A stretch of 64,000 nucleotides of DNA from Bugula neritina (Eukaryota; Animalia; Bryozoa), in assembly GCA_964035545.1 (NCBI GenBank), contig OZ037765.1, forward strand, positions 5,094,698 to 5,158,697. The letters are read 5' to 3'. This document shows positions 7,418 to 50,344 of this stretch, in pieces (the stretch's first letter is position 1; each line of letters starts with the position of its first letter). Both the position numbers and the translations under genes were made by a program. The notes below the pieces were generated by a model. The model saw only the letters and a list, made by a program, of their open reading frames with translations. It was not told where the DNA came from and ran no database searches.

Positions 7418-7722
7418 TGTGGTGGTTCGTGGAACTACCAGCAGCACGACATGTAGGGTCGCGTAATTGACCCGGAACAATGGATAGCCAATTAGCGTAG
7501 TTGATAGTTAGCAGCAATTGTAGTTTCCCGCTGCTAACTCAGTCGAAGCTAGAGTGTGAAATAGATTAGATGTGTAACTTGTTTGGAGATAATGTATCGT
7601 TTTTATAATGTATAATTGTGTGTAAAATATACTCGTTCACTCGACTTATCCTGGTGCAGTTCTATAGTAAATAAATAGACTCTCTGGATAGCACATCAAC
7701 CCTAAATCTGAAAATCTTAACA
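7418..7722 (+). repeat. 5' LTR (305 bp)
   Basis: TGTGGTGGTTCG...AATCTTAACA; no differences from 14606-14910 seen by eye; contains AATAAA near 7670. Confidence 0.97.
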
Positions 7723-7723
7723 G

Positions 7724-7741
7724 TGGTGGCAGCAGTGGGAT
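7724..7741 (+). other. Primer binding site, tRNA-Leu type
   Basis: TGGTGGCAGCAGTGGGAT begins 1 nt after the LTR and is complementary, with at most one mismatch, to the eukaryotic tRNA-Leu 3' end (...AUCCCACYGCUGCCACCA). Confidence 0.8.
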
Positions 7742-7753
7742 AGTGCATCCAAG

Positions 7754-8707
7754 ATGGAGACTGAAAATGCTGGAACTCAACCACCGGCAATCGAAGGTGA
7801 GCGTAGAGACAATGCTGTAGAGACAATGCCTGTTAACCATGTAGTAGAAGAGCGAAGGGTTCCGCGAGAACTAGCTGAGGACCGCTACAGGTTAAAGGCG
7901 CCCACCTTCACGGGTGAAGAGGAGGTGGAACAGTTTATCCAAGAGTTTAGCGACGTAATGGACGTCGCTCAGTGGCCCCCTAGGGTGGCCTTGCTGAAGC
8001 TTAGAATGGCATTGATGGACAAAGCCAAGCCCTATGGGCTGGGCGTAGACATTGATAATATCTTTGCTTCTCTGCGGGCCCGCTTTGGCCTCTCTGCTAC
8101 AGATGCCAGGGCCCGATTGCAGAGGTTGCGGCGTGATCCCCGCACCCCGCTGCGGGAGCATGCCGCCGCGGTCATGAAGCTGGCACAGATCGCGTACAGC
8201 GACTTGCCCCCAGTCAACCGCGAGAGGTATACCCTCGACGCTTTCATAGCATCTGTCGACGATCTGGGTCTCCACCACCAGTTTCTAGCTAAGGGAGTCA
8301 CCACCGTTGAAGATGCTCTGACTGAGGGGGAAGCTTACCTCCTAGCTAATCAAATGCATAAAAGTCGCGGAAGCTCCCGCCAAGTGGAGATAGACCGCGC
8401 AGACACGGCCGCGGGACAAGGGGAGGAAACCCCCGCCGCGGCTGCCGTGTCCCAGTTGGCGACGGCATCAAAAGTCACTCAACTGACGGACATGCTAGCC
8501 AAGCTGATAGCAACACTGACACCACAAAACCCAGTGAGTACCGCCCCTGAGCCCATGCGGCCATCGGCGCCGCCACAGGGAGAAACGGTCAGTTTTTGCT
8601 GGGAGTGCGGAAATCAAGGGCATTTCCGCCGATATTGTCCCTTCCTAAATCAGGGGTTAAACTACCGCGGCCCGCAGATGTTCCCACCTTCCGCGGGCCG
8701 ACGATGA
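7754..8707 (+). CDS. gag: Retrotransposon Gag (317 aa) with capsid-like region and one CCHC zinc knuckle
   Basis: Starts just after the PBS; KAPTFTGEEEVEQFIQEF...W is a capsid-type motif; CWECGNQGHFRRYC fits CX2CX4HX4C. Confidence 0.92.
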   Translation: METENAGTQPPAIEGERRDNAVETMPVNHVVEERRVPRELAEDRYRLKAPTFTGEEEVEQFIQEFSDVMDVAQWPPRVALLKLRMALMDKAKPYGLGVDIDNIFASLRARFGLSATDARARLQRLRRDPRTPLREHAAAVMKLAQIAYSDLPPVNRERYTLDAFIASVDDLGLHHQFLAKGVTTVEDALTEGEAYLLANQMHKSRGSSRQVEIDRADTAAGQGEETPAAAAVSQLATASKVTQLTDMLAKLIATLTPQNPVSTAPEPMRPSAPPQGETVSFCWECGNQGHFRRYCPFLNQGLNYRGPQMFPPSAGRR

Positions 8708-11700
8708 AACCTCCAGGGAAGAAGAAACGCAGGTCACCCAGACGGGTACCGCGTACTGGCAACCAACAGTGGCAACAGCCACGACGGACCAGCAAGGGGC
8801 TTCGCCCCGCAGCTGCCTTTTCTATGCCCCTTCACAACAGATTCACAGGGCTACAAGTCCAAGAATCTGGATGGGAGCCCACAAAGGTAGCTGAGAATCT
8901 AGCCTCGGCACCCCCGAGGCCTACCTACCACCGCCCTAAGAGACCTCCTTCGCGACCCAAAGCGAGGGAGGTACTCCCTGCGAGAGTAAGGCCTGAAGGG
9001 AGAGTTCAGGTGCAGCCCCATGGGAACAGCTATTTCTTGCCCGGTAAACTGGAAGGCAAAGCTGTTACTTTCCTCATTGATTCGGGCTGTACCACAAACC
9101 TCTTAAGCCGCCAACTCTTCGACACCCTCAGTACTAGGGTCAGGGGCGAGATGGAAGCATACGAAGGGGAATACGGCACCCTCGCTGACGGGTCGTGCCT
9201 TCCCTTCTATGGTATAATTGAGCTGACGGGACGAGTCTGTGATCAAACGATCCAAGAGACGTTCATCGTCAGTCAGCTCAAGGAGGATGCTATCCTCGGG
9301 ATGCCGTTCCTTAAACGGCACGGATGTCACATAGATTTTAGCAGATCTGCAATGATGATGTCCGGGCGGGAACTCGCCTGCGTCGACAAGTTCGGCCGCC
9401 CTTTAGTGGGAGGTGTGCAAGTGGTACGCAACCGTATCATACCAGGCCGCTCCCGGGCTACCATTCACTGCAGGGTGAATAGTAGCCGGATCTCTGGACT
9501 CGGGGTGGTTGAAGGCGCGCACGAAAAGATCCAACTTGCCAGCAGTCTGAATCAGCTGACTGAGCAAGGGGAGATCTTAGTGCAGTGCGTCAACCCCTTT
9601 ACCGAGCCTATCAAGCTCCCGGCTGGGTCGATGCTGGGCCGTTTTCACTCTGTTCAGGAGGGAGACGTAGGCCCGTCGCTGGGTGATGCGACGGAGGCAC
9701 CCCCTCAGTGCCCTATTCAGGGACGAGGGGCAGTCCCAACACATCTCCGGGAGTTATACGAAACAGCCAGTGGCGGCTGCGCGAGTAACAGAGAACGCCA
9801 AGCTATGGCCAAGTTACTACGCGACTACGGTGATGTGTTCAGCAGCGGAGAGCATGACGTGGGACTGACTGGAATTGTCAGACACGAAATACCGCTGACT
9901 GCAGGGACAGTCCCTGTCCGGCAGCCCACACGCAGGCTGGGGCCGGAGAAAGAGAAGGAGGTTAGCCGACAAGTACGGGATCTTCTGGACCGGGGACTGA
10001 TAGAGCCCGTCCATAGTGCGTGGAGCTCGCCAGTCGTACTGGTCCGGAAGAAAGACGGCAGTTGGCGGTTCTGTGTGGACTACCGCAAACTCAATAGCGT
10101 AACCATACAGGACGCCTACCCTCTACCTCGTATTGACGAGTCATTGGACGCCCTAGCCGGCAGCAAGTACTTCAGTACGTTAGACTTGCTAAGCGGCTAT
10201 TGGCAGGTTCCTCTGAGTCCCGACGCCCAAGAGAAAGCGGCGTTTATCACACGGGACGGTTTGTGGAAGTGGAAGGTGCTGCCCTTCGGGTTAACCTCCG
10301 CCCCAGCCACCTTCCAGAGGCTGATGGAACAAGTCCTTAGCGGACTCCATTGGAAGACACTGCTGGTCTACCTCGATGATGTCATCGTAATCTCTCCAGA
10401 CTTCGAGACACATGTCAGTCGTCTGCAGGAGGTTTTCGAGAGACTCCGAGGTGCCGGTCTTAAGCTCAAACCTTCCAAGTGCGCTCTATTGCAGCCGGAG
10501 GTCAAGTATCTGGGGCACGTTGTCGGTCGAAACGGCGTGGCAACGGATCCCGAAAAGGTACGGGCAGTAGAAGACTGGGTCACCCCCCAAGACTTGACCG
10601 GACTCCGGGCTTTCTTGGGGCTGGTAGGGTATTACAGGCAATACATACCAGACTTTGCGGGCATAGCCCAGCCGTTAAACCGGCTCACCGCAAAGGGAGT
10701 GACGTGGCAGTGGACTCCAGTCGAACAAGAAGCGTTCGACCGCCTCAAGGGCTGCCTACTAACGGCGCCCATCTTGGCCTACCCAGACCCCACTCTGGAG
10801 TACATCCTAGACACGGACGCCAGTGACCAAAATGTTGGCGCTGTGCTGTCACAAGTGCAGGAAGGCCGAGAGGTAGTAGTAGCCTACTACAGCAAGTCTC
10901 TCTCACCCGCTGAACGAAATTACTGCACTACCCGCAAGGAGCTGCTGGCAGTAATCAAGTCAGTGAAGCACTTCAGACCATACCTATATGGCAGGAAGTT
11001 CCGGCTGCGTACGGATCATGCCTCGCTGATCTGGTTGTGCAGGAGAGCAGAGCCCTCTAGTCAGGTCGCCCGGTGGCTCGAAATCCTAGCTGAATTCTCA
11101 TACCGGATCGAACATCGACCGGGCAAGAGACACAGCAATGCGGATGGGTTGAGTCGCCGACCTGACGGAGGTTGCAAACAGTGTCTCAACATCGAGAGGA
11201 GGGATGGAGGTCCCCCACGATGCGAGTTGGAGACGCTGGCTCATCACGGAGCACCGTTTGACTGGGATCAAGGTCAACTCCGGCAAAGAGTTGATGAGTC
11301 CCCGGAGGATGTACAAAACCTCCGCGCCAACCCTGTACTGGCCGGTAATGTTCGAGAGCTGAAGAAGCTCCAAGAAGAGCTGCCTGGAGTCGTGGCAGAC
11401 ATATACCGGGCCAAAAGGGAAGGGCGACGACCCAGCGAGGAACGCATACGACAGGGATGCGCCGAGTTCCGGCTATACTGTCAGCGTTGGGACTCGCTGC
11501 GGATCGGGCAGGATGGGTTGCTAACCATCTCTCTAGCTGCCAGCGGCAGACACCCGGAAAGGAAGAGGGTAGTCTGCCCCACAGCCATCCGCCGTGAGTT
11601 GATTTGGGATACTCACAAGCAGGCCCACGCAGGGGTCAAGCGAGTGATGTCCAAATTACGACTCCGGTGGTATTGGCCGCAGATGGAGCGTGACGTCCGG

Positions 11701-13227
11701 CTCAGAGTCAAACAGTGTGAGATCTGCCAGGCCAGTAAGCATAGCCGCCCCCCTGGTGAAGCAGGACGGCGGAGGCTATATGCTGGTAGGCCCTGGCAAG
11801 TAGTCGCTGTAGACCTGGTCGGACCCATGCCCCTGACCCCCAGAGGCAATAATTGGATCCTAGTACTAACCGACCACTTTACTAGGTGGGCGGATGCTCT
11901 GGCTATCCCAGATGCATCAGCCCCAACAGTGGCCAGGGCACTAGACCAACATGTATTCTGTTATTTTGGGCTTCCCGAACAGATACACTCTGATCAAGGC
12001 GCTCAATTCCAGTCTCAACTGATGAGCGACCTTTGCCACCTCTGGGGAGTAAATCAGAGCAGGACCACCCCCTACCACCCTCAAGGTAACGGGGTGGTGG
12101 AGCGCAACAACCGGATGCTAGGTGATGCACTCCGGAGTCTCCTCCTTGGACGAGGTCAAGAGGAATGGGATACAGTGTTGCCGCAAGTCATGCGTGCATA
12201 CCGTAGCACCCCACACACCAGTACTGGTGAGACCCCAAACCTCTTGATGCTCGGGAGAGAGACTCGTGTCCCCGACCATCTCACCTATCACGTTCCAGAG
12301 CAAGATAACTCAGTCCACGAGTATGCCAGTGAACTAGTGGAACGGATGAAGGCCGCACACGATATACTGCGCCAACAGCAGTGGAAGGTGCGGCACGAAG
12401 ATTCCGATGAACCACCCCTCTATCAAAGGGGAGATAAGGTGTGGATGGTCAATTACCGTAGGCGCCGCGGACAGGCTGATAAGCTGAAGCCTAAGTTCGT
12501 AGGCCCCTACGTGGTTGTCGAGGCTATGCCCAATCATACGTACAAGATTGAGCGCTCAGGACAGGTGTCTATCCAGAATGAGTCTCGCTTGAAACCGTAT
12601 TGGGCTAGCCCCGGCGGAGTGGGAGAAGCCCCCCCGTTGTTAGAGCCCAGGAGGCAGACAACAACGCGCGGGCGACGGCGGCATGGACCTGAATACGAAG
12701 TGGTCATACCGCGGGAAGAAAACTTGGTGAGAGAGGAGCGGCAGCTTTTGTCAACAGAAGCGTGTCCGCCACCGCCAAGTCTAATTCCATCACTTCCAGA
12801 AACCGAGCCGGTTCCGGAAGTGCAAACCCCCACGGAGGGAGGGGCTCCATCCGGAGAACAAGAAGAGGTGATTGCTGACGGTGAAGTAGAGACGCCATTA
12901 GAGGCCCCTACTAACGAACCGGCAAGCGTGTCACCCCCCCTAGAAAGGGGACAGCGTACGAGGCAACCCCCCGCATACTTGAAGGACTTCGTATGTGACT
13001 GCGTTAAAAGCGGCACGCATGAAAGTCTAGGGGAAAACCGTACGAGAAAAGAATCGAGCAAATGTGGGAGTTGTCAACACCACGGAAATATCAACTTTTG
13101 CATCGGCGGAAATAGAAACAAAATTCATCCGCCGGGTGCACAAAGTCTTAATCACGCACCCCAACCACGTTGCTCGATCTTTTCATACGCTGATGCAGTC
13201 AGGAGTAGACGTGTTTCTAAGCAGTAG
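8596..13227 (+). CDS. pol: Retrotransposon Pol (aspartic protease, RT, RNase H, integrase with GPY/F module), -1 frame relative to gag
   Basis: LIDSGC (protease); WRFCVDYRKLN, LPFGL, YLDD (RT); DTDASD...ELLAV...TDH (RNase H); H-x3-H...CEIC, VDLVGP/SDQG/VERNNR (integrase HHCC and DDE); KFVGPY. The ORF is uninterrupted. Confidence 0.97.
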   Translation: MLGVRKSRAFPPILSLPKSGVKLPRPADVPTFRGPTMKPPGKKKRRSPRRVPRTGNQQWQQPRRTSKGLRPAAAFSMPLHNRFTGLQVQESGWEPTKVAENLASAPPRPTYHRPKRPPSRPKAREVLPARVRPEGRVQVQPHGNSYFLPGKLEGKAVTFLIDSGCTTNLLSRQLFDTLSTRVRGEMEAYEGEYGTLADGSCLPFYGIIELTGRVCDQTIQETFIVSQLKEDAILGMPFLKRHGCHIDFSRSAMMMSGRELACVDKFGRPLVGGVQVVRNRIIPGRSRATIHCRVNSSRISGLGVVEGAHEKIQLASSLNQLTEQGEILVQCVNPFTEPIKLPAGSMLGRFHSVQEGDVGPSLGDATEAPPQCPIQGRGAVPTHLRELYETASGGCASNRERQAMAKLLRDYGDVFSSGEHDVGLTGIVRHEIPLTAGTVPVRQPTRRLGPEKEKEVSRQVRDLLDRGLIEPVHSAWSSPVVLVRKKDGSWRFCVDYRKLNSVTIQDAYPLPRIDESLDALAGSKYFSTLDLLSGYWQVPLSPDAQEKAAFITRDGLWKWKVLPFGLTSAPATFQRLMEQVLSGLHWKTLLVYLDDVIVISPDFETHVSRLQEVFERLRGAGLKLKPSKCALLQPEVKYLGHVVGRNGVATDPEKVRAVEDWVTPQDLTGLRAFLGLVGYYRQYIPDFAGIAQPLNRLTAKGVTWQWTPVEQEAFDRLKGCLLTAPILAYPDPTLEYILDTDASDQNVGAVLSQVQEGREVVVAYYSKSLSPAERNYCTTRKELLAVIKSVKHFRPYLYGRKFRLRTDHASLIWLCRRAEPSSQVARWLEILAEFSYRIEHRPGKRHSNADGLSRRPDGGCKQCLNIERRDGGPPRCELETLAHHGAPFDWDQGQLRQRVDESPEDVQNLRANPVLAGNVRELKKLQEELPGVVADIYRAKREGRRPSEERIRQGCAEFRLYCQRWDSLRIGQDGLLTISLAASGRHPERKRVVCPTAIRRELIWDTHKQAHAGVKRVMSKLRLRWYWPQMERDVRLRVKQCEICQASKHSRPPGEAGRRRLYAGRPWQVVAVDLVGPMPLTPRGNNWILVLTDHFTRWADALAIPDASAPTVARALDQHVFCYFGLPEQIHSDQGAQFQSQLMSDLCHLWGVNQSRTTPYHPQGNGVVERNNRMLGDALRSLLLGRGQEEWDTVLPQVMRAYRSTPHTSTGETPNLLMLGRETRVPDHLTYHVPEQDNSVHEYASELVERMKAAHDILRQQQWKVRHEDSDEPPLYQRGDKVWMVNYRRRRGQADKLKPKFVGPYVVVEAMPNHTYKIERSGQVSIQNESRLKPYWASPGGVGEAPPLLEPRRQTTTRGRRRHGPEYEVVIPREENLVREERQLLSTEACPPPPSLIPSLPETEPVPEVQTPTEGGAPSGEQEEVIADGEVETPLEAPTNEPASVSPPLERGQRTRQPPAYLKDFVCDCVKSGTHESLGENRTRKESSKCGSCQHHGNINFCIGGNRNKIHPPGAQSLNHAPQPRCSIFSYADAVRSRRVSKQ
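8656..8720 (+). other. Putative -1 programmed ribosomal frameshift signal (G_TTA_AAC plus GC-rich stem/pseudoknot)
   Basis: The heptamer at 8656-8662 is in gag phase and is followed by a 5-nt spacer; CGGCCCGC (8668-8675) pairs with GCGGGCCG (8693-8700); loop TTCCC could pair with GGGAA (8716-8720). Confidence 0.7.
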
Positions 13228-13251
13228 TTCAAACCATTTCACACATTCAGT

Positions 13252-14317
13252 ATGTCTTACGACAACAGATCGTGGGGTGAGTTAACTATATCTTAATACG
13301 AAACTAGATTGCATCGCTCAGCTCTGACTCACTGAGTCAATCGAGCTGGAGATAGGTTAGTGAAATACCGTAGTAAGAACTCAGATTTTTATAATCTCAT
13401 TGCAATACGTGTTCTATCTGACTATTCACTACCATAAATCTCTACGAGGTAACTGAATTAGGAGTTGCCAAGCTGTTCAAGCTGACAACACAGCAGTGTA
13501 CTGTATTAACACTGTTGAAACTTTTTCAGATTACACTCGACCCGCTACAACCAGGGTACGGGATAGAACACTTCCCGCTCCGTATCCAGAGGAGTACGCT
13601 AGTGGTGACCGGCCTGAGCCACTACACCGCCGTTGGCGGTGGGTGTCTCCACAAACAGAAGAAGAAATAGAAACAGCCTGGGGGTCCAGAGGACGGACGA
13701 GATGCCAGATCTGTGGTGAAGATTGCGCCTCTCACCGCTCCCTTAAACTACACGTCAATGCTCATCTCCTACTAACATTCTGCCCCTGCGGGTACAATGA
13801 TGTGTATCCCTACCCCGTCACCAGACACAGAGCGGCGGGCTGTTTCCCTGGAGAAAACTACGTGGTCGACGCTAAGCTATACCCGGAGTTCCTCACACTT
13901 ATACGACCTCTGGTGAAGAAGGCCATGTTGTTAGCCGTTCTGTCCTCGGGGTTCCAACGTGTGTTAGACAACGCCCGCCAACAATCCCCGTTGGTGTCTG
14001 ACCGTCCTCAAATTACATACACCCCCGAGGAAATTACATACCCAGAAGAAGGAGAGATCTCCCCTACACCGGCGAAGAGACGAACCAGGTCCCCCAGTCC
14101 ACCCTTGCGCCGCAGACGGACACCGTCCCCAGACCCAGTACGCCTGGCTACCGTAGAAGAACGCCTCCTACGATTACAAGAAGAGTTCACCCAGCTGGCA
14201 CCAGATCTACTTAACACTACCACAGGACTCTTCCAGCTAAAGGGATCCGTATGCCGTATGAAACGGAAACTGCGTACATGCCAAGCCAAGCACCGGCGTG
14301 CCCAACAAGGACTCTAG
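13252..14317 (+). CDS. Retroelement accessory ORF3, probably spliced: C2H2 zinc finger, second Cys/His finger, Arg/Ser/Pro-rich basic segment and coiled coil
   Basis: The open frame 13496-14317 has no ATG near its start but has the acceptor ctttttcag|A at 13529/13530. In-phase donors lie at 13276|gtgagt (mini-exon ATG 13252) and 7796|gtgagc (in gag). CQIC-x12-H-x3-H motif present. Confidence 0.75.
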
Positions 14318-14594: not shown

Positions 14595-14605
14595 GGTGGG
14601 GGCGG
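14595..14605 (+). other. Polypurine tract (G-rich) before the 3' LTR
   Basis: GGTGGGGGCGG immediately precedes the TG of the 3' LTR. Confidence 0.6.
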
Positions 14606-14910
14606 TGTGGTGGTTCGTGGAACTACCAGCAGCACGACATGTAGGGTCGCGTAATTGACCCGGAACAATGGATAGCCAATTAGCGTAGTTGATAGTTAGC
14701 AGCAATTGTAGTTTCCCGCTGCTAACTCAGTCGAAGCTAGAGTGTGAAATAGATTAGATGTGTAACTTGTTTGGAGATAATGTATCGTTTTTATAATGTA
14801 TAATTGTGTGTAAAATATACTCGTTCACTCGACTTATCCTGGTGCAGTTCTATAGTAAATAAATAGACTCTCTGGATAGCACATCAACCCTAAATCTGAA
14901 AATCTTAACA
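14606..14910 (+). repeat. 3' LTR (305 bp)
   Basis: Direct repeat of 7418-7722. Confidence 0.97.
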
Positions 14911-23500: not shown

Positions 23501-26500
23501 CCACATAAATGCATAATTAACTACAAACTAATTGCTAACTAAAACTATTGTACTGTTATTTAGTTGGCAAGTTATTTTAGTCATCGAATTTCATGTTTTT
23601 ATTATCAATCAGGAAATAAACACCAGTAGGCTTGCCATCTTGCTAATGGATCCTAACATTCTTTTTTTATAATCTTGTGTAATGTCATGTGCCTCTGAGA
23701 AATAACTGCTGAGTATAACTAATATTTCATTGAAACTATGCCTCGTCTTTTTGCAAGAGAGAGGGCAATTGATTAAAAAGTAAGCTGAAAGTCGGTGTTG
23801 AGTATAATTTGGAGATTTTAAACTGAAAGGTTTTCTCGAAAGGAACTAGCAATTCCTTCTGCATTATGATTTAATGTTGAAGTAAAAAATTGCAAGATTT
23901 CTTCTATTAGTTATTATATTTTATTCAGTCAAGTCTCTGCAAAATATCGCTTTAGACATCATATCCCATGGAGGCCTCTTCTGGAAGTATATTCAGTTGA
24001 TTGCCATTTATTTGAAGCTGGTGACAAGTTTTTTTTTTTCAAAACTTTATTTTTGTCTTTGATTACAGATGGCTATGCGTGCTACGTTGGCTGGAAAAAA
24101 TACAAGAAGAGCTGCTACAGGCGGTTTGACAAGGTTTTGAGTTATGCTGCAGCAAAAGCTGACTGTAAGAACAACCAGGGAACACTGTTAGTCATCAATG
24201 ATATTGAAGAGATGGACTTTCTAGTCGGTCAGTGTTGTACACAGTTTTATATAGCTATCATCTCTGCTGGTTATACATGATAGTTGTATTCTGTTTATTT
24301 GTATATGTTATTTCCTGCTGTATGTTTCTGCCATCTTGTTTCAGCGGACAGCCTGTTACTCAACAGTATCGTATGGATAGGATATGATGATTTAAAGACT
24401 CCTGGGAGATATGAGTGGGTAGATGGTTCACCTAGTACCTTTACTTATTGGGCTCCTAATGAACCTAACAACCTTAATAATAAAGAACATTGTGTAGAGG
24501 TCAGTTATATGTTGTATTTCAGTTTTTATTCAGTTATATTTAATTAAATCTGTAAGTAATATATTCTAAGAGTATATTTAGCCAACGGCTGTGTATGGCA
24601 TATAGGTAAGGTAGGTAAAAATAGGCTGTAACTAAATCAAATCACTTCCTTCTCCAAATTTTCGTTACACTTATCTATTTGTTTAGCTTTAGCATTGTGT
24701 GTGGTACTAAGCATCTACTGTTTGCAACAAATGTGTCTGCAATATGGTACCGAGTTAATAGATGAGTATATATTGGAAGGCCACAGAATGGTGGCTCTTC
24801 AGCTTTTCCTATTTGTCTATAGTGCTAAAGCAACTTTCACATTGTTAGATTTGCAGCTAAAAGCTATTGTTTTTTTCATTTTAGCTGCAATGAGTAAGTT
24901 TGTAAAACACTCTTTTACTGATATTTGTTCTAGATTATTCCACTGACAGCATCACATCTTCACAATAATTCAATCAGCAATAAAATGCTTAAACTGCAAT
25001 TTTTGAAAATGAAATTATGTTTTACATATAACCAGAAATTACTTACTGTATGCCAGCTTCAATACATGTGCCCTGGTAATAGCAATGGGTCTTTTTAAAA
25101 CATACTAGTTATTTTGTTGCTGACTGTAGTTATGGTAATCACCAGTTCGACTCTAGAGGTTTACATTGCAGATGATGTCCAGGTCGTTCTCTAGCCCAGC
25201 CGTGTGGAAGGATACGGACTGTGCTGGCACCCGCCCGTACATTTGTGAGACATATGCTGTACCAGGAACCCAGGCTACTACTCCAATGCCCACCCGTATG
25301 TTGTTTCTTTACTTGTTCGACTGGTAATTAATGGAATTTAGTAATGCAAATTAAAGGTGACTTTACTACATTGTGTATGGATGTGGGTTATGGCACTAGA
25401 ATATTAGTTAGATTATGGTAAACAGTTTTAGTATACTTTCCTAGATTACGTGAAGTTTGAGCTCCTGCCACTATGCAATGAGGCCAGCTGTGTGTTTTAA
25501 AATGGACTGATCTTAGTATACTTTTATTATTAATAAGCTAAATGATAATTTTATTTTTATACCAAATAACTAATACTTTTATCCAATGTTTTACTAACAC
25601 ACACAACACATTTACACACCATGTTGTTGTCATCACCCAGGTCCCTGGTCTACAGAGTGTGGAGTAGGCTGGACTGTTGACCATCTCTCTGGAAACTGTT
25701 ATTACTTTAGTTTTGACTCCAAGAGCTGGCAGGCTTCTAGAAATGCTTGTAAAAAGATGAACTCTGACCTTATCAGCATTTCATCTAAAGTAGAGCAGCT
25801 GTTTATTCGAGGTGTGTGGCTACCATGTTCAATTCATCTTTTTGGATACAGGTGCAGATGGGATTAATTTGTAATACATGTTCATTCATAATTTTTTTTT
25901 TATGTAAACATTAGTGAGTTTTAAGCCTAGTTTTTCTCTTCTTTTTTTAAAAAAAAATTATTTACGTACTTTGAAATCTTATTTTTAGGTTGTGGCTTAT
26001 CTAATATGTCTAAATTATCTATCATACATGGATTATTCAATTATTAGTGCCCAGTTTTTGCTTCACCAATATCTTGCATTTGGTTATAATAAAGTTTATG
26101 TAAACGAGAAGAAAACTCTCTCTTTCCAGGCATACTGCGGGGCGACACTTCTGGTGCAATAGCGTACTGGACAGGGGGAAATGACAAAGCTGCGGAGCAA
26201 GGGTGGCGTTGGGTTGACAAAAGTCCTTTCAAATACCTCAACTGGAACGACGGTAGCTTTTTACCTTTACTCAACGTACTAGCCTATTAAACATTGTTCT
26301 GACTCAATTCGTAAAACAGTTTACTTGAGTGATTGGCCATTTAAACTTTGAATAAAGCAGAAGTGAAAGTTGACCTCCAGAATGCAGAATGCAGCCTCAG
26401 CTGATCTCCGCCTGTCTTGGTTTAATTTTTCTGCAGAATTCTTTCAACAGTTTATTGTCAGTCTTGCGAGGTGAAACTAATAAAAACATGTTATCTATGA

Positions 26501-38500: not shown

Positions 38501-41500
38501 ATTTCTATTTGTCAAGGTTAAATTTACAAACACTTGCACATCATTTAAAGCTTTAGCAGAGTAAATAGCTAACAACCTGAAGTATTGGAGTATATTCTGG
38601 AAACTTCTAAACTTTCTTCCTTATCGCTGGTGCTGTGCTTAGAACTCAGTGGAGTTTCTGTCTGTCTGCGTGTATATCCTAGGGATTTATGTGTAATACA
38701 GGCTACAAGTGGGTGAGTGGTGATGCATTCACGTATGCTAACTGGAAAGAGGGTGAACCCAACGACTGGGATGGACTAGAACCTTGTGTTATGATGGATG
38801 GAGCTGATGGTAAATGGAATGACGAGAAATGCCATCTTTTGCTCAACTGGATCTGTAGCATTAGTCGAAGTGAGTCTTCATGCATTGTTTATGTGTAGCA
38901 CTTACTGTATACTGTGATGTTTCGTATGTAGTACTTACTGTATACTGTGATGTTTTGTATGTAGTACTTACTGTATACTGTAATGTTTCATGTGTAGCAC
39001 TTACTGTATACTGTGATGTTTCGTATGTAGCACTTACTGTATACTGTGATGTTTTGTATGTAGTACTTACTGTATACTGTGATGTTTTGTATGTAGTACT
39101 TACTGTATACTGTATTGTTTCATGTGTAGCACTTACTGTATACTGTGATGTATCATGTGTAGTACTTACTGTATACTGTGATGTATCATGTGTAGTACTT
39201 ACTGTATACTGTGTTGTTTCATATGTAGTACTTACTGTATACTATGATGTTTCATGTGAAACACTTACTGTATATCGTGATTTTGCATGTCTTATGATGA
39301 ACTGTTTCAGTTAACATTGACCTTAATGTTATTCTAGGTGATGCTGTTAACATCAAGCGCGTAACGACAACTCATGAACCAACATCTGGTCCGTGTAAGT
39401 AGACCATGTGCGGACAGTTTGAATAGTGAAACACTTATGCCTAATTCAATAAAGCAAAAGTAACCACTTTTTCATTTTAGATCCTCACCTTTAGATGAGT
39501 CATGCTTTACTTGTTTTAACTACACTCCTTAGCATGTCACGTATACATCACTTACCAAGTACGTTATCTGTTTCACTCTACAGCTGGACAATGCCCTGAT
39601 GGGGATGACTGGAAATTCTTCCAAGGAAACTGTTACTATCTGAACACAAAGCAGCAGACGTACAGAGAAGCTTCGACTCTCTGTAACGGTTTTGGTGCTC
39701 ACCTCGTTTCTATACAGTCATCTATAGAGAACAGTTTTGTCAGAGCTATAGTAAGTATTGGAGAGAATTAATATAGGAGTGTTTAGATGTTATATTGTGA
39801 GCATCTAATGTCATGAGTGAAATATACTGCAATCTTCAATTTTTTCATTCTTGTCATATTTTTCTGTCTGTAGTCCAAACATCTGGTAACTGATTTCATC
39901 GGGAGAATCACTCAGAGGTTACCTGGTGGAGTAGCCATGACAGTTTGGACTGGTCTCAATGAATTGGACAGGTCAAAAGGTCACAGGTAGGTGCTACTTT
40001 CAGCTTACTTTAGTTTGAAGTTGGTCAACAAAACTAGCCAGGTTGCTAAAAGATTGAGCTGATTTTTGCAGTAGACTACACAGACGAGTTTAATATTGAT
40101 GTAATGTAGTTTAGGTGTCCTGCCACTAAAGTAAAATAAATTTATCCACTCAGTTTTGAATTTAGTTGTTATCTTCTGCTACTAGTTGTTATATGTACCG
40201 TGAAGGTTGAGAAGATCGTCACTAATTTACAGGTGGTCTGACGGGGCGGGATATAAGTTCTCCAACTGGGCACTAAACGAACCCAATGATTACGGTGGAG
40301 GGGAGTACTGTACTGGATTGTTGGTAGCCAGTGGTAAGTTTGTTGTTATGACGCCGCATTCATGGCCGCATTCACTATGTCGTTTCTAGCTGGTCATTTC
40401 TAATTCGTAGGTTTGGTGTTGTGTGTTACCATAATATGTCTCTTTATATGTTTTTTCTGTTACATTTCCACTAGTTTTATGAATCACTGTTTTTTGTGTT
40501 GGGAGTGTAGGCTGCTTGAAGTTTGACATTGAATTATACAGAGAGTTCTGTATACTCAGGTGAATGGAATGACATGCACTGCTCAGCAAGAATTCCATCC
40601 ATCTGCAAGAAGAACCCAACGTCTGTGAAACCCATAAGTCCTACACCTCCCACACTAATAGATGCTTACTGTCCTTCGGGTAAGTCTCAGGGCTTGTTGA
40701 CAGTTTCTCTTGATTGATATATTTTTTATCTAACTAAACCTTAGCATTGTTTTGCAGTTATCTATGAGAAGGCAACTCTCAATGTGCACACTGGGTGATT
40801 ATTATGTACTAGGTATATCTTCACCCTATGGCAAACTTTAAATGTGGTTATAGTAAGAGGAACCTGAAATTACAATATTACCAATATTGCAGGTTACATG
40901 GGTTTTGAGAATTATTGCTACAAGATGGTAGTAAACAAGAGGTTAAACTGGACGTCTGCAGAATTTATTTGTGGTACAGAGGGAGGGCATCTGGCATATA
41001 TTCGTAACAGCAGAGAGCAGAGTAAGTATTGTAAACAATAAAGTATGTCTATTAGTGTAAGTAGCAAGTAAATGGTAGAGTCTCTCTTGCAGTCAGTCGA
41101 TACGACTATGACTGTTTTATGGATTCGGCTTAGATTTGGTTGCAGCTCTCCACGCAGCTCTGTTGTCAGCTGTCTGCTGCCAAGAACTCAAGTTTATTGC
41201 TCTCCATTTCATATTCCTCTTAGCAACATCTTTAAGTCTGAGTCTAGGTCGCCCTGTATTTCGTTTACCCTCTTTCAGCTGAGAGTAGAGCAATTGTCTT
41301 GGTAGCCGGCTATGTTCCATACTGTGCACATGGCCTAGCCATCTCAAGTTCTTTTCTATAAGGATGTCGGCCATGCTTGGCAAATTGGCACGTCTTAACA
41401 TTTCTTCATTCGTAACTTTGTCATACCATTTTACAGCCATTATGTCTCTCAGTTGCCTCATCATGAAAGCGCTTAGCTTCTTCACCTGTGTCCTGTATAT

Positions 41501-44500
41501 TGTCCATGTTTCTGCTCCATACAGCAGGCTTGAGAGCACCATCGCTCTGTAGACTTTACACTTTACCCTGATGGATACATGTCTGTTGTTCCAGAGTCTC
41601 TGCTGCAGCTTTCCGTAAGCCGCACTTGCTTCAGGTTCAGGTGGAGGGTGGATGAGTTTGATTGGCTGGTACATGCATTCTGTCTTTTTAATGTAGAGTA
41701 TAGCAAGATAAAGAGGTATACATGTGTTCATATTGGTGTTTTTAGCTTTCCTGACCAGCCAGCTGAATGCGGCAAAGAAAGCGAATGTTGCCTTGTGGTT
41801 GGGTCTGAAACATGGAAGTCTACACGGAGGTGTGTACTTCCGGCATACTGATTCTTACATGTGGTCATCTAATGAAGATGTCACTTATACCAACTGGAAT
41901 CATGGTGAACCCAATGGACAGAACCAGGTTACTAGTTATATTTTAATTACCAAATTAATAAGTTATTTGACTTGTTGTAATTTAGTACATTCTATTTTAA
42001 TCATAGTATTAATAATCATACTTGCATGTATTCTAGCTGTAAGCATTTTTCTGTTAATTGTTGAATTTTTAATAATTTTTTTTTGTTTCTCCAGAGATAT
42101 AATGTTTCATCAGATCAAAATTGAACTCCTAGTTTAAAAACAGAAGATAGGCAGTCATTATCAACATCTTAAACTTAAACATGCTAAAGTAGGTGCTTCA
42201 CTATTATTAAAATTTCCTTCTTCGAAAGTCATTTTGCATGTGAAAACTTTAGGAGGCATGTACGGAGATGCTGTTCAACCCAGCTGGCAGGTGGAACGAT
42301 GTCAGTTGTGCTTCAGAAAGAGGCTATATTTGTCGTAAGCCTAAAGACGGGACTGTAAAGACCCCTCCTGCCCAAGACAACTTTGGCTGTCCCCAAGGCT
42401 TCATTAAATGGGAGAACTCATGCTATAAGTACATCAGGTAATGGCGGAAAAAGCTTTTAGTAGTTTTTACCAACTTGGAAATATTTAGGGCTGATTGCAA
42501 TAGAATTGTAACATAAGTTTGAATTCTCTTGAAAAGTGGTATTTGTTTTTTAAGGTCTTATTTTGTAAAAAATAATATAGATTAGCAACTGCTTTACTCT
42601 CTTGTGTATAGCCAAAAGGGTACGTGGAGTTATATGGACGCCAGAGTGTGTGGTTCTGATGCTAACCTTCTATCCATCCAAGACCCATATGAGTATGCTT
42701 TTGTAAGGACTTTCATGTGGAAAAACAAACCAAGTGAAGATGTGTGGATAGGATTGTCTTCCCCTGCTGTATGTCTAAAGCAAGCTTTTGTTTTCAATTG
42801 CCACTTGTATCTTGTAAGGTCTACGGGAAATAAAATATGAAGGCATTCGGCCATCTGCTATTATGTAGATATCAGCAGAAAATTTATTCAACATGAATAT
42901 ATCAGAAAAAAAACCTTTGTAGTATTAAAGAAAAAAAATATCCCGAGAAGTTTTTTCTATTCTTAATGATTGAGGCATTTGTTTTTTTGTATATATTTTC
43001 ACAGTTTAAAATATGTAATCCTAAGTTTTGACGATGTGGAGAAGCATTATCAGAGCATTTAAATGGTTTCACATGTGAAAGCTGAACCAAGGAATACATT
43101 AATTAGGAGACTACAGTAGCTTAAATAAATCCTTTTTTCAATGTAACTGATATTTTATTTATAATTGAGAGTTGTGCCTCCTTAGCAGGTACATACTTTA
43201 ATCACACTTCTATTAACCAAAGTGGCGACAGCTTACACACTGAATGATTTATGGGATTTAAATGCTAGCTGCCACTGTAGCACTTCTCTATAAACAAATG
43301 ACCATGAAAACCCTTTTAAGCTCTCTTTTTTTTTTAAATTTGCTGTGAAGAAATATTGTTAAATATTTTTTTAAAAATACTATTGTGTGTGCTACTACCA
43401 AAATGTTTATTTACTAGAGGAACAAGTATTTAGCATAATTTAGGTATATTTAGCAGTCAAACTGTAAATTTTCATCGAGACTGCAGCTATATATTAAGGT
43501 GAAAGTATGCGCTACGTAAATAATGGGTGATTATCATACCACGTATACTGCAATATTCCTGACATTAATGGACTTAAACATGGTGTGCAAATGTCAGCCT
43601 CTGTTTAACTTGACACTCTTAAAGTGTATGCTGGGAATATTTTGGTGTATATTATTATTTATTTAGCACCTGTTCTGGTGTGTTTTACTTTTAAAACACA
43701 CGATTGATATTTTAGGACTCAAGCGGATTTGATTGGTCAAATGCCTGGCCAGTGGTTGTGACGTACTGGGGTGATAATGAGCCTTCATATTTGAAAGATT
43801 ATAAGAGTTGTGTGCTCATGGATACTGGATACGGCGAAGATGATGGGAAATGGAAAGTTAGGATATGCAATGAGATGCACTCGGCCATTTGCAAGAAACC
43901 GCTTGGTGAGTTTTTAATCTTAACTTGTTCTATGTATTCACCTCATACTGCCTTCACTCGTTTACTTCTGTTTCTATACTGAATTTCTGATTTTTCATGA
44001 CCTACAGTTTCTGAGTACTTTCAATAACATCTGCTCGAATAGTTTATATAGCCTATTTTTCTGTTAAGACTTTGCCTCTGTATTGAATTTTACAGCTGCT
44101 TTTTGCTGATGTTTGTAATGCTTATAATGTGCTTATGGTGTGCTTATGATGCTTATAATGCTTATGACCAACACTCTGCAACATTGCTTGCAGGTCATAG
44201 TGCTTTTAAATGTTGAATGATAATATTTTACCCAATAGTAAAAAGTTAGGTGTTTAAATGTAATGAGAGGGTTTTTGATCAATTTATTGGTGATGATTAT
44301 TATGATTGCTCAATTTTTAAAGGATTTTGAAACTATATTCAATTATCACAAAAGGTATGCCTTAAACCTTGGAGTATGCATTATATCACCTTGACCTTTA
44401 CAGGGGGTATACCGTACCCTCCCGCAAACACTGGAGTCTGTCGTGCGGCAGCAGGTGAGAACTGGATCCCCAACAGCGATGGTTTCTGTTACCTGTTCAA

Positions 44501-47500: not shown

Positions 47501-50344
47501 ATTTTAATCGCTTATTTTTGATTTAATTTAACCAATTCAAAAGTTTTAAAAGATTAAAAAATCTTTATCCGGGTTGTTTGAATTAAACTCAGCTTAAAAA
47601 TCTAGCTTTCCCTAATCACAAAACCAAGCAAACCAAAAACTTAAAAATGATTTGGACGGCCTAAATATTCATTATTTAAATTAGTTTGCGCAATTATTTT
47701 AAAAACGGATATATTTAAAAGAAAGATTCTTTTCATGTTATTGCTTTTATTTAGTAAATAGCATTTATATAACATCTTTCGATAAGAATGTTGCGAATAA
47801 TTTGTAAATAATATTCAAAGGCGTTCAAATCACCGCAGACAAGAGTTGGCTTTATTATGATTGGTCACAGCTCAACGGCATGCATTATACTTTTACGGCA
47901 ATGTGTGAACACCCGTTGACAAAATGCAACAGCGTCGCCATTTTATTTTTGCTGTTACGGCGTACGATACGGTAAGTGTGAATGAGGGGTTACTGTTGCA
48001 AGGCTATTCATTCCTGCCCTGTGCCTATCCAATTGTAGCCGGACTCAATGGTTCGCCAGGCACGTGGCCAAAGGAGTACTGTTTCTCAAGAAAGCCATTC
48101 ATCTGCGAGATCGACGTGAACAAGAAGATTAGAGCAACTACGGCAACTCCAGTTACAGACGGCAGTCTCTGTCACTTCCCCTTTCAATACAGAGGTCAGC
48201 TGTACAACACCTGTACCACGTATGGAGCTTCTTACCTTTGGTGTGCTACGACCGACAACTATGAAAGAGATGGGAATTTTGCTATTTGTGGTATGTTCAG
48301 CATTTATTGCATTCTGTTCTGTCTAATTCCATGGCAAACATGAAGAATCTTTTTGACGGCCATAAAATGTCTATATTTGGTGCTACACCATATTTGATTG
48401 GCTCTACTGGCTCACTGCGTTTCAAAGCTTCGCATTGTATAGATTTTTTATTTATTATTTGGAAAAAGTTGCATCGAATGAAACCATAACCATAAGTTCA
48501 TGCAAGCTGCAACCACGAATTCATGAGTATGAGTATATCCATTCGCATGTGCAGTGATAGAAACGCAGTGATTACTATAGTCTATAGCAATCCAACGTGT
48601 CTGTCAAGCTGTGACATTCTGCACAGCCATCTAGTTTCACCATGGCATTAAGTTTCACATTTCAGTCACTCTACAATACTAGACTCCTTCTGCTCTTCAT
48701 TTACATATTCTAATTTTCCTCATAGTTCCAAGTTTCTGCTCATTCTAGACCCTTACCGATGTGAACCTAGCCTAACAAGACACAATGAGTTCTGCTATTA
48801 TTTCTCCTCCTACATTGACCAGATGTCCTGGGTGGAAGCAGGGGCCAAGTGTGCTTCTATGGGCGCCGATCTTGCCTTTATAGGCTCACCTTCTGTGGAA
48901 AGCTTCATTGCTGGTCAGTGAATCTCCACTTATCTATGCACATGATACTGTGCCTAAAGTTGTTAAGAGCTGTGACTGTTTTTATACCTGTAAAATTATT
49001 GTGTTGTTTTGTATGTTGTAGATAACATTTTTGACATTTACTGGATTGGTTTGAACGACATCATGAATGAGCAAAGCTTTCAGTGGGCTCATAGACCAAA
49101 CCTTGTTGTGGTGAGTTTTACAATAGAGAAATATTTTACAATAGAAAAATTATAGTGGTTGTATCGAAGTTTTGTAGGTGTAGCCAATTGTTGAAAGAAC
49201 TTGTGTCTTTCTACAAGTACTTTATTTTTGATTCTAACAGAAGAAGTAGTGAAAGTTTCCTGGTGCGTTAGAGAAGTACAGTCAACACTCTATGATATTT
49301 ATCGTGTCATTTTGAATTTCCTTACACCCTTTAAATCTATACAAATTTTGCAGACCATAATGTTATTTCTACTTGTGCTACTATAAGCTGTTAGGCCAAC
49401 TGTCTTATTCTATAGCAGTATTGATTTTACTGTTGATTGATTTACCGCTGATTCTTCTCAGAACTCTAGTTTTACCAACTGGGGTGTTGGTGAACCACGC
49501 AGTATCTCTGGTTCAGAGGACTGTGCTCAAATAGTGAACGGTGTAGACAGTAGGCCTGGTGCCTGGCTCATGGAAGATTGTCTGACTCTGAGACGATACA
49601 TCTGTATGAAGGACGCAGGTCAGTGCAACAATCACCAGTCTTCTTCTTTTTCTTCTTCTTTTTCTTCTTCTCTTTCTGTGTCATGTTTACATATGGCGGC
49701 ACTAAGAAAAGGAGATTCACTGATTCTGTAATTCTTGTCGGAAGATATTCCATATTGGGATTTTTTTATATTCAGTTTTGCACTAATTACTAAAGACACA
49801 TTTCATGAAATTAGCGAGGTTTGTTTTGTTTTCATTGGCAGTTAGCACACAGTATAAATGTGTTTCTACACTAAAATATCATTTAGTGAATGCTTACATG
49901 GCAAATGAAAATTCATGATGGATTTTTGTTGGTTTTATAATTCACAAGGATTAATAAATTTGTAAGCTTTTTGTTTTTTATTTTGTAGAGTATGTTTTAG
50001 CAACAACCACTACACCAACTACCACAACCACTACACCAACTACCACAACAACCACTACACCAACTACCACAACAACTACTACCACAACAACCACTACACC
50101 AACTACTACAACAACTACCACACCAACTACTACAACAACTACCACACCAACTACTACACCCACTACCACAACAACCACTACAACAACTACTACACCAACT
50201 ACTACACCAACTACTACACCCACTACAGCACCCACTACAACACCAACAGCTGCAACAAAGGCAACTTTCTCAGCAGAAGCAAATGGAGGTTTAACACAGA
50301 ATCAATCTGCTCCTTTGAATGGTAAACAAACTACTAGTATTTGA
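17584..50344 (+). CDS. Giant multi-exon mosaic C-type lectin, paralog A (mannose-receptor-like): SP-CTLDx5-F5/8C[FAMeT insert]-F5/8Cx2-WSC-CTLDx8-FN2-CTLD-Thr mucin; 3' end uncertain
   Basis: The signal-peptide exon 17584-17650 (MLQPRRNIFSTLVFLGITSLYS) splices in phase 1 to 18256 (VLGANQCPQGW...CY). Dozens of GT-AG exons carry CPxGW..CY, WIGL, EPN/QPD, WND and YICE motifs. An in-frame TGA at 50342-50344 follows the Thr-rich exon, with AATAAA at 50555. Confidence 0.85.
20017..20223 (-). mobile_element. tRNA-derived SINE copy 1
   Basis: Homologous to 23314-23502 and 35304-35496; tRNA-like head plus the core TGGTGATGTTAGGAAAAGCATCCAGTCATAATTGC. Confidence 0.75.
22791..22877. repeat. 20-bp tandem repeat (tataatataatatccataag), about 4 copies
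   Basis: Directly visible periodicity. Confidence 0.8.
23314..23502 (-). mobile_element. tRNA-derived SINE copy 2
   Basis: Minus strand reads GGGAAGCAGCCGTGGTCTAGGGGTTAGAGC (A box)...GGTTCGAGTCC (B box), then the shared core and the tail GTGACTATAAACTTGCGTGAG. Confidence 0.8.
27406..30615 (+). other. Paralog A: first F5/8 type C (discoidin) domain split by a nested Methyltransf_FA-like cassette (exons 28114-28264, 28633-28755, 29057-29229)
   Basis: N-part C..ELISGTHWVPDSAFQTSSNRDANSGPENSRID (27406-27537); insert FSVQACNDAHISL...YEVVLGGWANTQSVVR...RQFWITW..G.IQVG...STGWGASGEW; C-part GGWSP...QWIQVDF...SVTTKG...FAGNKD...AQYVRLRP...LRWALDGC. Confidence 0.8.
30826..33311 (+). other. Paralog A: second and third F5/8C discoidin domains
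   Basis: EQWIQ...HGIVTKG...WVKSY...FQANTDQ...YVRIIP...MRMDILGC; and ARLD...AWIP...IQVDFG...AVTTQGR...QWVTAY...ARVIRIHP...MRIELHGC. Confidence 0.85.
33470..33991 (+). other. Paralog A: WSC carbohydrate-binding domain (2 exons)
   Basis: VGCF...SPSKCAANCFKQGFMYAGL...CKCGNS / CNYKCRGDSNFYCGG matches the 8-Cys WSC pattern. Confidence 0.85.
35304..35496 (+). mobile_element. tRNA-derived SINE copy 3 (degenerate)
   Basis: gttagagcattggcctggtgaacacgaggtc...ggtgatgttagaaagagcattcagtcataattgctc...gtgactataaatccacgtgag belongs to the same family. Confidence 0.7.
38891..39290. repeat. 33-bp intronic minisatellite, about 12 copies
   Basis: Unit is approximately atgtgtagtacttactgtatactgtgatgtttc; it explains the spurious 11-aa-periodic ORF 38880-39314. 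Confidence 0.95.
41082..41692 (-). mobile_element. 5'-truncated RTE-clade LINE fragment in an intron
   Basis: KVYRAMVLSSLLYGAETW...LRWLGHV..M...RLPRQLLY..L..G.R..GRP.LR..D...W...A.NR..WR is the RTE-type post-RT C-terminus. A short 3' UTR hairpin follows; possible TSD GTAGAGT (41075-41081 / 41693-41699). Confidence 0.85.
47306..47990. mobile_element. Non-autonomous TIR DNA transposon (MITE, ~685 bp), TA-flanked
   Basis: ACCCCCTATTCACACTTACCGTACCGTACGCCGTAACAGCA versus TGCTGTTACGGCGTACGATACGGTAAGTGTGAATGAGGGGT: about 41-bp near-perfect TIRs, TA on both sides, no transposase ORF. Confidence 0.85.
48151..48290 (+). other. Paralog A: fibronectin type II domain
   Basis: TDGSLCHFPFQYRGQLYNTCTTYGASYLWCATTDNYERDGNFAIC is a canonical FN2 signature. 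Confidence 0.9.
48749..49618 (+). other. Paralog A: final (14th) CTLD
   Basis: RCEPSLTRHNEFCYYF...MSWVEAGAKC...YWIGLND...FTNWGVGEPR...DCA...W...DC...YICMK. Confidence 0.8.
49989..50344 (+). repeat. Coding Thr/Pro-rich mucin-like repeat exon (ACN/CCA repeats)
   Basis: Phase-1 acceptor ttttgtag|AG at 49988/49989 gives EYVLATTTTPTTTTTTPT...; the listed minus-strand V/G ORF is its antisense shadow. Confidence 0.85.

Follow-up and report, generated by a model that had tools for sequence, protein, structure and literature searches.

The stretch of DNA analysed here (64,000 nucleotides of the Bugula neritina contig OZ037765.1, hereafter the window) contains one complete Ty3/Gypsy element on the plus strand. 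Behind pol and ahead of the 3' LTR, where retroviruses keep the envelope gene, this element carries a third open reading frame (ORF3) that is a real gene under selection. Its product is not an envelope protein and is predicted to consist mainly of a compact double zinc-finger domain and a C-terminal coiled coil, and its message is very probably made by a splice from the start of gag. The same domain lies behind pol in most of the closely related elements in which it could be looked for.

The element is bounded by two 305-nt LTRs of the form TG...CA (7418..7722 and 14606..14910), identical at 305 of 305 nt. A primer-binding site, which we take to be of the tRNA-Leu type, lies 1 nt past the 5' LTR (7724..7741), and its motif is also found upstream of gag in the related loci L001, L007, L010, L012 and L018. 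Together with a polypurine tract (14595..14605), these paired LTRs and the primer-binding site mark the element as a Ty3/Gypsy LTR retrotransposon. The gag gene (7754..8707) encodes 317 aa including a CCHC knuckle, and the pol frame (8551..13227) has Pfam domains at positions 164-253, 498-657, 721-849 and 1010-1177 in the Gypsy order PR-RT-RNaseH-IN, with Ty3 RT as its best solved-structure match. The insertion is young, since gag and pol are intact, and its target-site duplication is imperfect (ATGG and ATAG, three of four bases alike). All coordinates, phases and lengths given in a first-pass annotation of this DNA were correct to the base. A G_UUA_AAC motif in the gag phase with a stem 3' of it (8656..8700) is likely a -1 frameshift site, judged from its sequence: the peptide context is preserved in the Gag relatives P0263 and P0285, and the stem is GC-rich but weak (z -1.5, with 13 of 200 shuffles equally good). 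Downstream of the element, C-type lectin and fibronectin type II exons (23870-24280 and 47909-48343) belong to a host receptor-like gene, and a 245-codon frame on the minus strand (41117-41854), with no Pfam match at E 0.01, resembles the C-terminal part of an ORF2 from a non-LTR (LINE) element. For the naming of the clade (Mag, Cigr, MolGy etc.), a short-motif search in the supplement of PMC2836005 gave no match.

The ORF3 frame (13457-14317) has 286 open codons and its first Met is codon 157, so that expression requires either splicing or initiation at a non-AUG codon; the main exon (13530..14317, plus strand) comprises 261 whole codons and the stop. A word-based search found 65 relatives among 749 candidates, with identities of 45-98%, and a full HMMER search found 104 cluster representatives with identities down to 26%. 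Among 30 proteins looked up, the named homologues were bryozoan only. Locus scans by ORF3 confirmed 0 of 9 viral and 0 of 76 metagenome stretches, and those by integrase 0 of 36 in viral and 0 of 40 in prokaryote genomes. For the analysis of selection, 16 common variants were taken from copies in two public runs, one intronic variant being dropped and two being seen in the RNA run only. Of the 15 that remained, 12 turned out to be synonymous, where 31% would be expected (P=1.4e-4), and indels are absent from the list. In the pol control, which covers 33 of the 40 variants listed out of 575, the core had 12 of 18 synonymous variants and the tail 2 of 7. Pairwise pN/pS of the third ORF came to 0.22, 0.10 and 0.09 among L004, L013 and L019, which form a distant sister family. 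The first-pass annotation had named the conservation and selection of ORF3 among other copies as a check, and both were found.

As that annotation also held, ORF3 is not an env gene. The most hydrophobic 19-residue segment of the product scores 1.5 and contains two Lys and one Arg, which leaves no membrane helix; there is no signal peptide, and a Pfam search with ORF3 and 75 family members gave no env family match. An envelope of the errantivirus type, that is a membrane glycoprotein, was considered and rejected on these features. The env genes of errantiviruses are themselves expressed by splicing.

The core of the protein (13640..13984) was modelled with AlphaFold2 as a compact double zinc-finger domain at pLDDT 94.1 and pTM 0.86. 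This model was built from 75 diverse sequences; an earlier one from 40 close relatives was poor, with pLDDT 53 and no fold match. In the model, a W-x-S/T-x3-T helix comes first at the N-terminus; the C2H2 finger is followed by a 5-residue strand and the C-x-C...H...C finger, and a V-D strand with further helices completes the domain. Finger 1 (13703..13765) has the spacing C-x2-C-x12-H-x3-H and finger 2 (13781..13843) the spacing C-x-C-x12-H-x4-C, both as originally read from the window, and the ligands are near-invariant and retained down to ~25% identity. In 65 distant rows of the alignment, C38 and C61 are present in 65/65 and H51 and H55 in 64/65 each, while C63 and H76 of finger 2 are found in 63/65 and 61/64. 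The last Cys of finger 2 is kept in 36/64 distant and in 17/17 close rows. Finger 1 fits the pattern C-x2-C-x3-F-x5-L-x2-H-x3-H, with Phe in 33/61 and Leu in 50/65 distant rows and with Cys instead of Phe in the window copy. It falls below the Pfam cut-off (Pfam on the 75 members gave weak C2H2 matches only, in at most 8 of them), and its best profile match to C2H2 DNA-binding proteins has E 1.7e-6. In position numbers that follow established C2H2 geometry, +6 is mostly hydrophobic and basic residues are retained at +2, +3 and +5, and the link between the fingers is 5 residues long and hydrophobic, with no TGEKP-type linker. By its sequence, finger 1 would not be a standard base reader.

Against 48,161 solved chains, the core model had 0 matches at Z >= 5, and Foldseek found none at E 0.001 in the PDB and viral models, an absence that does not prove a new fold. 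The closest structures at the level of the fingers are tandem C2H2 DNA binders (Z up to 3.6, rmsd 2.8-3.0 over 49-57 residues), and the atlas matches of the domain are unnamed clusters and generic C2H2 families (0.86-0.90). Kruppel-type C2H2 proteins such as SALL, ZBTB and Kaiso resemble ORF3 in the pattern of finger 1 and, roughly, in how the two fingers are arranged, whereas the 5-residue link, the C-x-C second finger and the flanking helices and strand in one domain, for which there is no whole-domain match (Z<5), set ORF3 apart from Kruppel-type arrays.

The coiled coil at the C-terminus (14144..14314) is predicted as one long helix with pLDDT 72-91, and its heptads, already noted in the first reading of the DNA, score above 100/100 shuffles. 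It is a family-wide feature: for 18 of 23 homologues, at most 2 of 100 shuffles were as good. Upstream of it, a basic Ser/Thr-Pro stretch (14069..14131) is a candidate nuclear localisation signal that is lineage-specific in this form. The RRRTPSP-like stretch had been compared to the hepadnavirus core; just 3 of 65 close relatives have it, and this likeness is therefore discarded as that of a lineage-specific insert. Other basic runs downstream of the domain were present in 15 of 23 distant homologues examined. Taken from these models, the product is predicted to be nuclear, multimeric via the coiled coil and nucleic-acid-binding. Among export-signal patterns, class 1a was present in 10 of the 39 upstream segments, where shuffles gave 6.3 (19/300 as high), and the other classes were below chance. 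Upstream of the domain, 10 of the 39 distant members have an acidic double-Leu motif, compared with 1.7 among shuffles (0/300).

Expression would start from a predicted first coding exon within gag (7754..7796, 14 codons and 1 nt, with the donor GT at 7797) and continue behind a predicted acceptor formed by a pyrimidine run and CAG (13507..13529). The donor 7796|7797, after 43 coding nt and in phase 1, fits the acceptor 13529|13530 and gives a protein of 276 aa; it is the only donor of the element with 6/7 consensus matches. The relative P0022 (261 aa, on one 5,320-nt contig) has 14 N-terminal residues that are the start of the Gag protein P0222, followed by Asp and then by ORF3 sequence, at the codon and in the phase predicted from the window DNA alone. 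On a rough count, a random in-frame fusion of gag and ORF3 would match both points by chance in about 1 in 12,650 cases. This junction is found in 1 of the 65 relatives, on a contig that may be RNA or DNA, and other internal deletions occur in the ORF3 family (P0041, P0080, P0171). The Glu-Gly-Glu encoded at the donor is conserved in 43/48, 43/49 and 49/49 Gag relatives (those 49 with a sufficient N-terminus among the 120 Gag hits listed, in an alignment that the motif itself perhaps anchors), and the adjacent columns vary and the arm length differs. Where the Gly at the donor is changed, 4 of 6 relatives have Ser or Arg, the codons of which are able to retain GT; protein constraint is a possible other cause of this conservation. 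At the other end, 15 relatives of ORF3 have a frame that stays open across the acceptor; their residues there are Ser (14) or Leu (1) and then Asp or Gly, which fits a kept CAG or TAG. Because of the P0022 junction and the conserved donor and acceptor codons, the gag-to-ORF3 splice is the most likely route by a wide measure, with the joined protein seen in one relative and deduced for the window copy. The RNA run (0.06 share) had 20 contigs on the element, with the acceptor uncovered and spanned by none of them, and the 15 of 106 joints listed include none at the predicted sites; these contigs do not count as evidence that the element is transcribed. Directly after the gag donor, a 14-nt tandem duplication (7803-7829) adds three residues that were seen in 0 of 49 Gag relatives.

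The first-pass annotation had proposed two routes into ORF3, and the one from gag has held up better than the other, a mini-exon (13252..13276) that would be read from its own ATG at 13252. As the main route, driven by an internal promoter, this mini-exon is very unlikely. Its donor 13276|13277 (25 nt, phase 1, of the form G|GTGAG) does fit the acceptor 13529|13530, giving 270 aa, but the phase is all that speaks for it besides this donor, and the donor type is not rare (4 G|GTRAG sites per 7.5 kb). No joint was seen in either run across the region with both sites, where the single RNA contig lies outside the sites, and no relative was found that starts with the mini-exon peptide, whereas P0022 starts with Gag. 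Just upstream of the mini-exon ATG is an acceptor-like AG (13250-13251). With a 26-nt internal exon there, a message begun in gag would lose the frame of ORF3, which could possibly act as an off-switch.

The distribution of the domain was followed through the Gypsy clade. In a cluster of 34 members found by the longer-protein search (P0289), the domain is the end of the Gypsy Pol frame, and P0292 from this cluster is 55% identical to the window pol over 1,338 columns. Related loci were then chosen on their integrase only, which left 34 confirmed out of 178 stretches; 15 of these end less than 1,000 nt from the match and are untestable. The testable close loci number 12 (integrase identity 53-63%, at least 1,300 nt beyond), and 7 of these have the domain after pol at E 1e-18 or better, as a separate third ORF in L004, L013, L019 and the broken copy L006, as a fusion to Pol in L001 and L002, and in one or the other arrangement in the broken locus L008. 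A diverged finger pair is present in the other 5 (L012, L007, L015, L016, L020), as a weak domain match in L012 (iE 0.004) and as seen by eye in the rest. Aligned to the core as a group, these five loci matched over 33 columns with a probability of 82%, and 0 of 60 column shuffles scored as high; this alignment may reflect generic C2H2 likeness. Among distant loci with comparable DNA, the domain was found in 0 of 7. In the integrase trees, a single branch sets the carriers apart, with support 82/97 for 30 rows under a mixture model and 100/100 for 21 rows (nine left out) under a simpler model.

Several related loci have further features. In L007:1125-7628, L012:1067-7381 and L015:1447-3438, Pol is extended by 500-600 low-complexity residues and ends in the diverged zinc-finger pair and an acidic tail, with no coiled coil. 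The order in L022:2-3427 is unusual for Gypsy-like elements, with the match to integrase upstream of the frame for RT; we assume this order to be Gmr1-like. The Pol-fused element L001 has a strong donor in its 5' leader (L001:539) and, at the end of the integrase tail, an acceptor-like AG before Asp-His whose phase agrees with that in the window, and its fused domain may thus also be freed by splicing; the idea that fused elements have no donors was dropped on account of this leader donor. About 165 nt upstream of the third-ORF ATG, L004:3060-3090 (also L006, L013 and L019) has a branch-point-like CTAAC, a pyrimidine run and TAG, in copies so alike (95%) that their conservation of this region is uninformative. 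One or two copies of the domain are also present in the proteins P0072/P0161, P0118, P0288 and P0107, three of them annotated proteins of Watersipora subatra or Bugula neritina. In the tree, the annotated proteins from these bryozoans fall in at least two places among element-linked rows; they may be domesticated genes or annotated remnants of elements.

The nearest precedent is CERV of the C. elegans Ty3/Gypsy element Cer1, described as a spliced, Gag-sharing, non-env nuclear regulator that acts in the export of unspliced RNA (PMC10309623). Both CERV and ORF3 are non-env frames that follow pol and precede the 3' LTR, the spliced RNA of CERV shares the Gag N-terminus as does the ORF3 relative P0022, and CERV has a cysteine finger, a leucine zipper, a basic signal and Ser-Pro phosphorylation sites to which the features of ORF3 are alike (PMC10309623). 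In contrast to the ~276 aa and two predicted exons of ORF3, CERV has 517 aa in five exons, and its finger is a C4-type loop, whereas ORF3 has C2H2 and C-x-C/H/C fingers and no C4 arrangement (PMC10309623). The CERV zipper is N-terminal and shared with Gag, while the coiled coil of ORF3 is C-terminal, a comparison made by description only; further, CERV has a G-protein-like domain, of which the fold searches with ORF3 returned no row, its non-finger part being a low-confidence linker and one helix (PMC10309623). CERV has been reported as confined to nematodes, with no homology stated outside them (PMC10309623).

Other third ORFs share the position or the logic. Errantiviruses and env-carrying Ty3/Gypsy elements have a third ORF after pol as does the window element, and the passages of PMC13524379 that were searched contain none of the strings 'zinc', 'accessory' and 'splic'. 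ORF3s of LTR elements are in general expressed by splicing, and bdelloid LTR elements carry non-env ORF3s (GDSL esterase, DEDDy exonuclease, TM and coiled-coil types) in the env slot like the window element; the portion available mentions no zinc-finger type among them, and the window ORF3 has no Pfam match to those enzymes (PMC5408684). The sORF1 and sORF2 of the Drosophila MDG1 group are, like ORF3, accessory frames of env-less Gypsy elements under purifying selection, but unlike ORF3 they encode 70-110 aa, lie mostly upstream of gag and are unspliced, and sORF2 is a membrane protein (PMC11952523). Env, enzyme or membrane ORFs and clades, and not the ORF3 domain, are treated in the passages of PMC8556966 and PMC2836005 examined. 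No description of this protein family was found in the literature searched, in which subscription papers and Repbase entries were not covered and supplements only for PMC2836005, so that an earlier annotation there is possible. A complex-retrovirus-like organisation in Gypsy is thus already known from CERV, and the 'undescribed accessory-gene system' of the first-pass annotation was an overstatement (PMC10309623); what appears to be new is the protein family and its clade-wide spread.

As to function, the reading that we rank first, tentatively and at somewhat less than even likelihood, is by analogy a nuclear adaptor by which the element exports its unspliced RNA. A splice would join the first 14 codons of gag to the acceptor behind pol, and the resulting accessory protein with its double zinc finger and coiled coil would enter the nucleus and multimerise through the latter. 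It might then bind a folded stretch in the intron, switching output from spliced to genomic RNA, a step that we also consider plausible without favouring it outright, and would license the export of full-length RNA, the task of CERV in Cer1 and of Rev in HIV. The strongest donor lies 43 nt into gag, so that unspliced RNA must escape splicing; export is ranked first because of this donor and because CERV does that job, and further because finger 1 looks like a non-standard base reader and the predicted intron has such a folded stretch (8820..8990), a candidate response or packaging element. At z -5.07, with 0 of 200 shuffles as stable, this stretch is the top of 123 windows scanned, and the 12 most stable folds among these are all inside the predicted intron; RNA folding in retroelement coding regions can have other causes. 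In structure it is a set of three hairpins at the non-enzymatic start of pol, and dimerisation is a further candidate role. Against export stand the lack of any conserved export signal enriched in the family, the finger-level structural neighbours, which are all DNA-binding C2H2 arrays, and the acidic double-Leu motif, which fits an activation domain. Of the Pol-fused elements, L010 and L012 have no donor at 6/7 and the two of L007 are far downstream. The last CERV exon can share the polyprotein frame (PMC10309623), and Pol-fused relatives therefore do not exclude an export role.

Several of these points bear on rival readings. Close behind in rank, though less likely than not, is that the spliced protein dimerises through the coiled coil and acts on its own LTR by binding DNA or chromatin, either as an activator or against silencing, comparable to Tat/Tas-like feedback. 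The profile match of finger 1 and the alignment of the finger pair to tandem C2H2 arrays over ~50 residues agree with this, but solved C2H2 structures are mostly DNA complexes, which biases the neighbours, and the missing TGEKP-type linker and the hydrophobic +6 speak against it. The acidic motif would suit an activator as well, although it was picked post hoc, 4 of its 10 occurrences belong to one subfamily and the window protein does not have it. Basic runs often precede the coiled coil, domains are duplicated in the annotated bryozoan proteins, and this role would work as well from a Pol fusion. Fusion is also the basis for regarding the domain as an integration-targeting or particle-borne chromatin tether, on the integrase when fused and in trans when split, which is quite unlikely. 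Chromoviruses carry a chromodomain behind integrase at the end of Pol, and the domain has that place in P0292 (five listed members of 2,373 aa), L001 and L002, closing the Pol frame after integrase; however, 300-700 low-complexity residues separate the two in fused forms, splicing could still release a fused domain as in Cer1, and the separate gene in the window family and in L004, L013 and L019 has no known route into the particle. The least probable reading takes ORF3 for neutral sequence, captured or read through, and the P0022 junction for a chance deletion. It would account for an ORF3 with no ATG of its own, for a family rich in deletions and for the window copy having no RNA junction, where the RNA contigs do not lie over the acceptor, but it is already contradicted by the selection data, with the excess of synonymous variants in ORF3 set against the pol tail and the low pN/pS in the distant sister family, as well as by the retained zinc ligands and the clade-wide place after pol.

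Unspliced-RNA export or LTR activation in env-less LTR retrotransposons is known in few cases. If a regulatory role holds, ORF3 would be a second, apparently unrelated spliced regulator marking a Gypsy clade, and complex-retrovirus logic would have arisen again in retrotransposons. A broader version, which we regard as unlikely in full, is that a whole marine-invertebrate Gypsy clade has been 'complex' since its origin, with a Rev-like export protein that has a new double zinc-finger fold and no relation to Rev or CERV, that binds a folded element in pol RNA, and that moved between Pol fusion and separate spliced gene and was domesticated by hosts more than once. ORF3 supplies a compact and confidently modelled domain without named family or fold match, the split and Pol-fused elements form a natural comparison, and the bryozoan proteins are perhaps domesticated copies. 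Third ORFs such as this one should not be labelled env by default.
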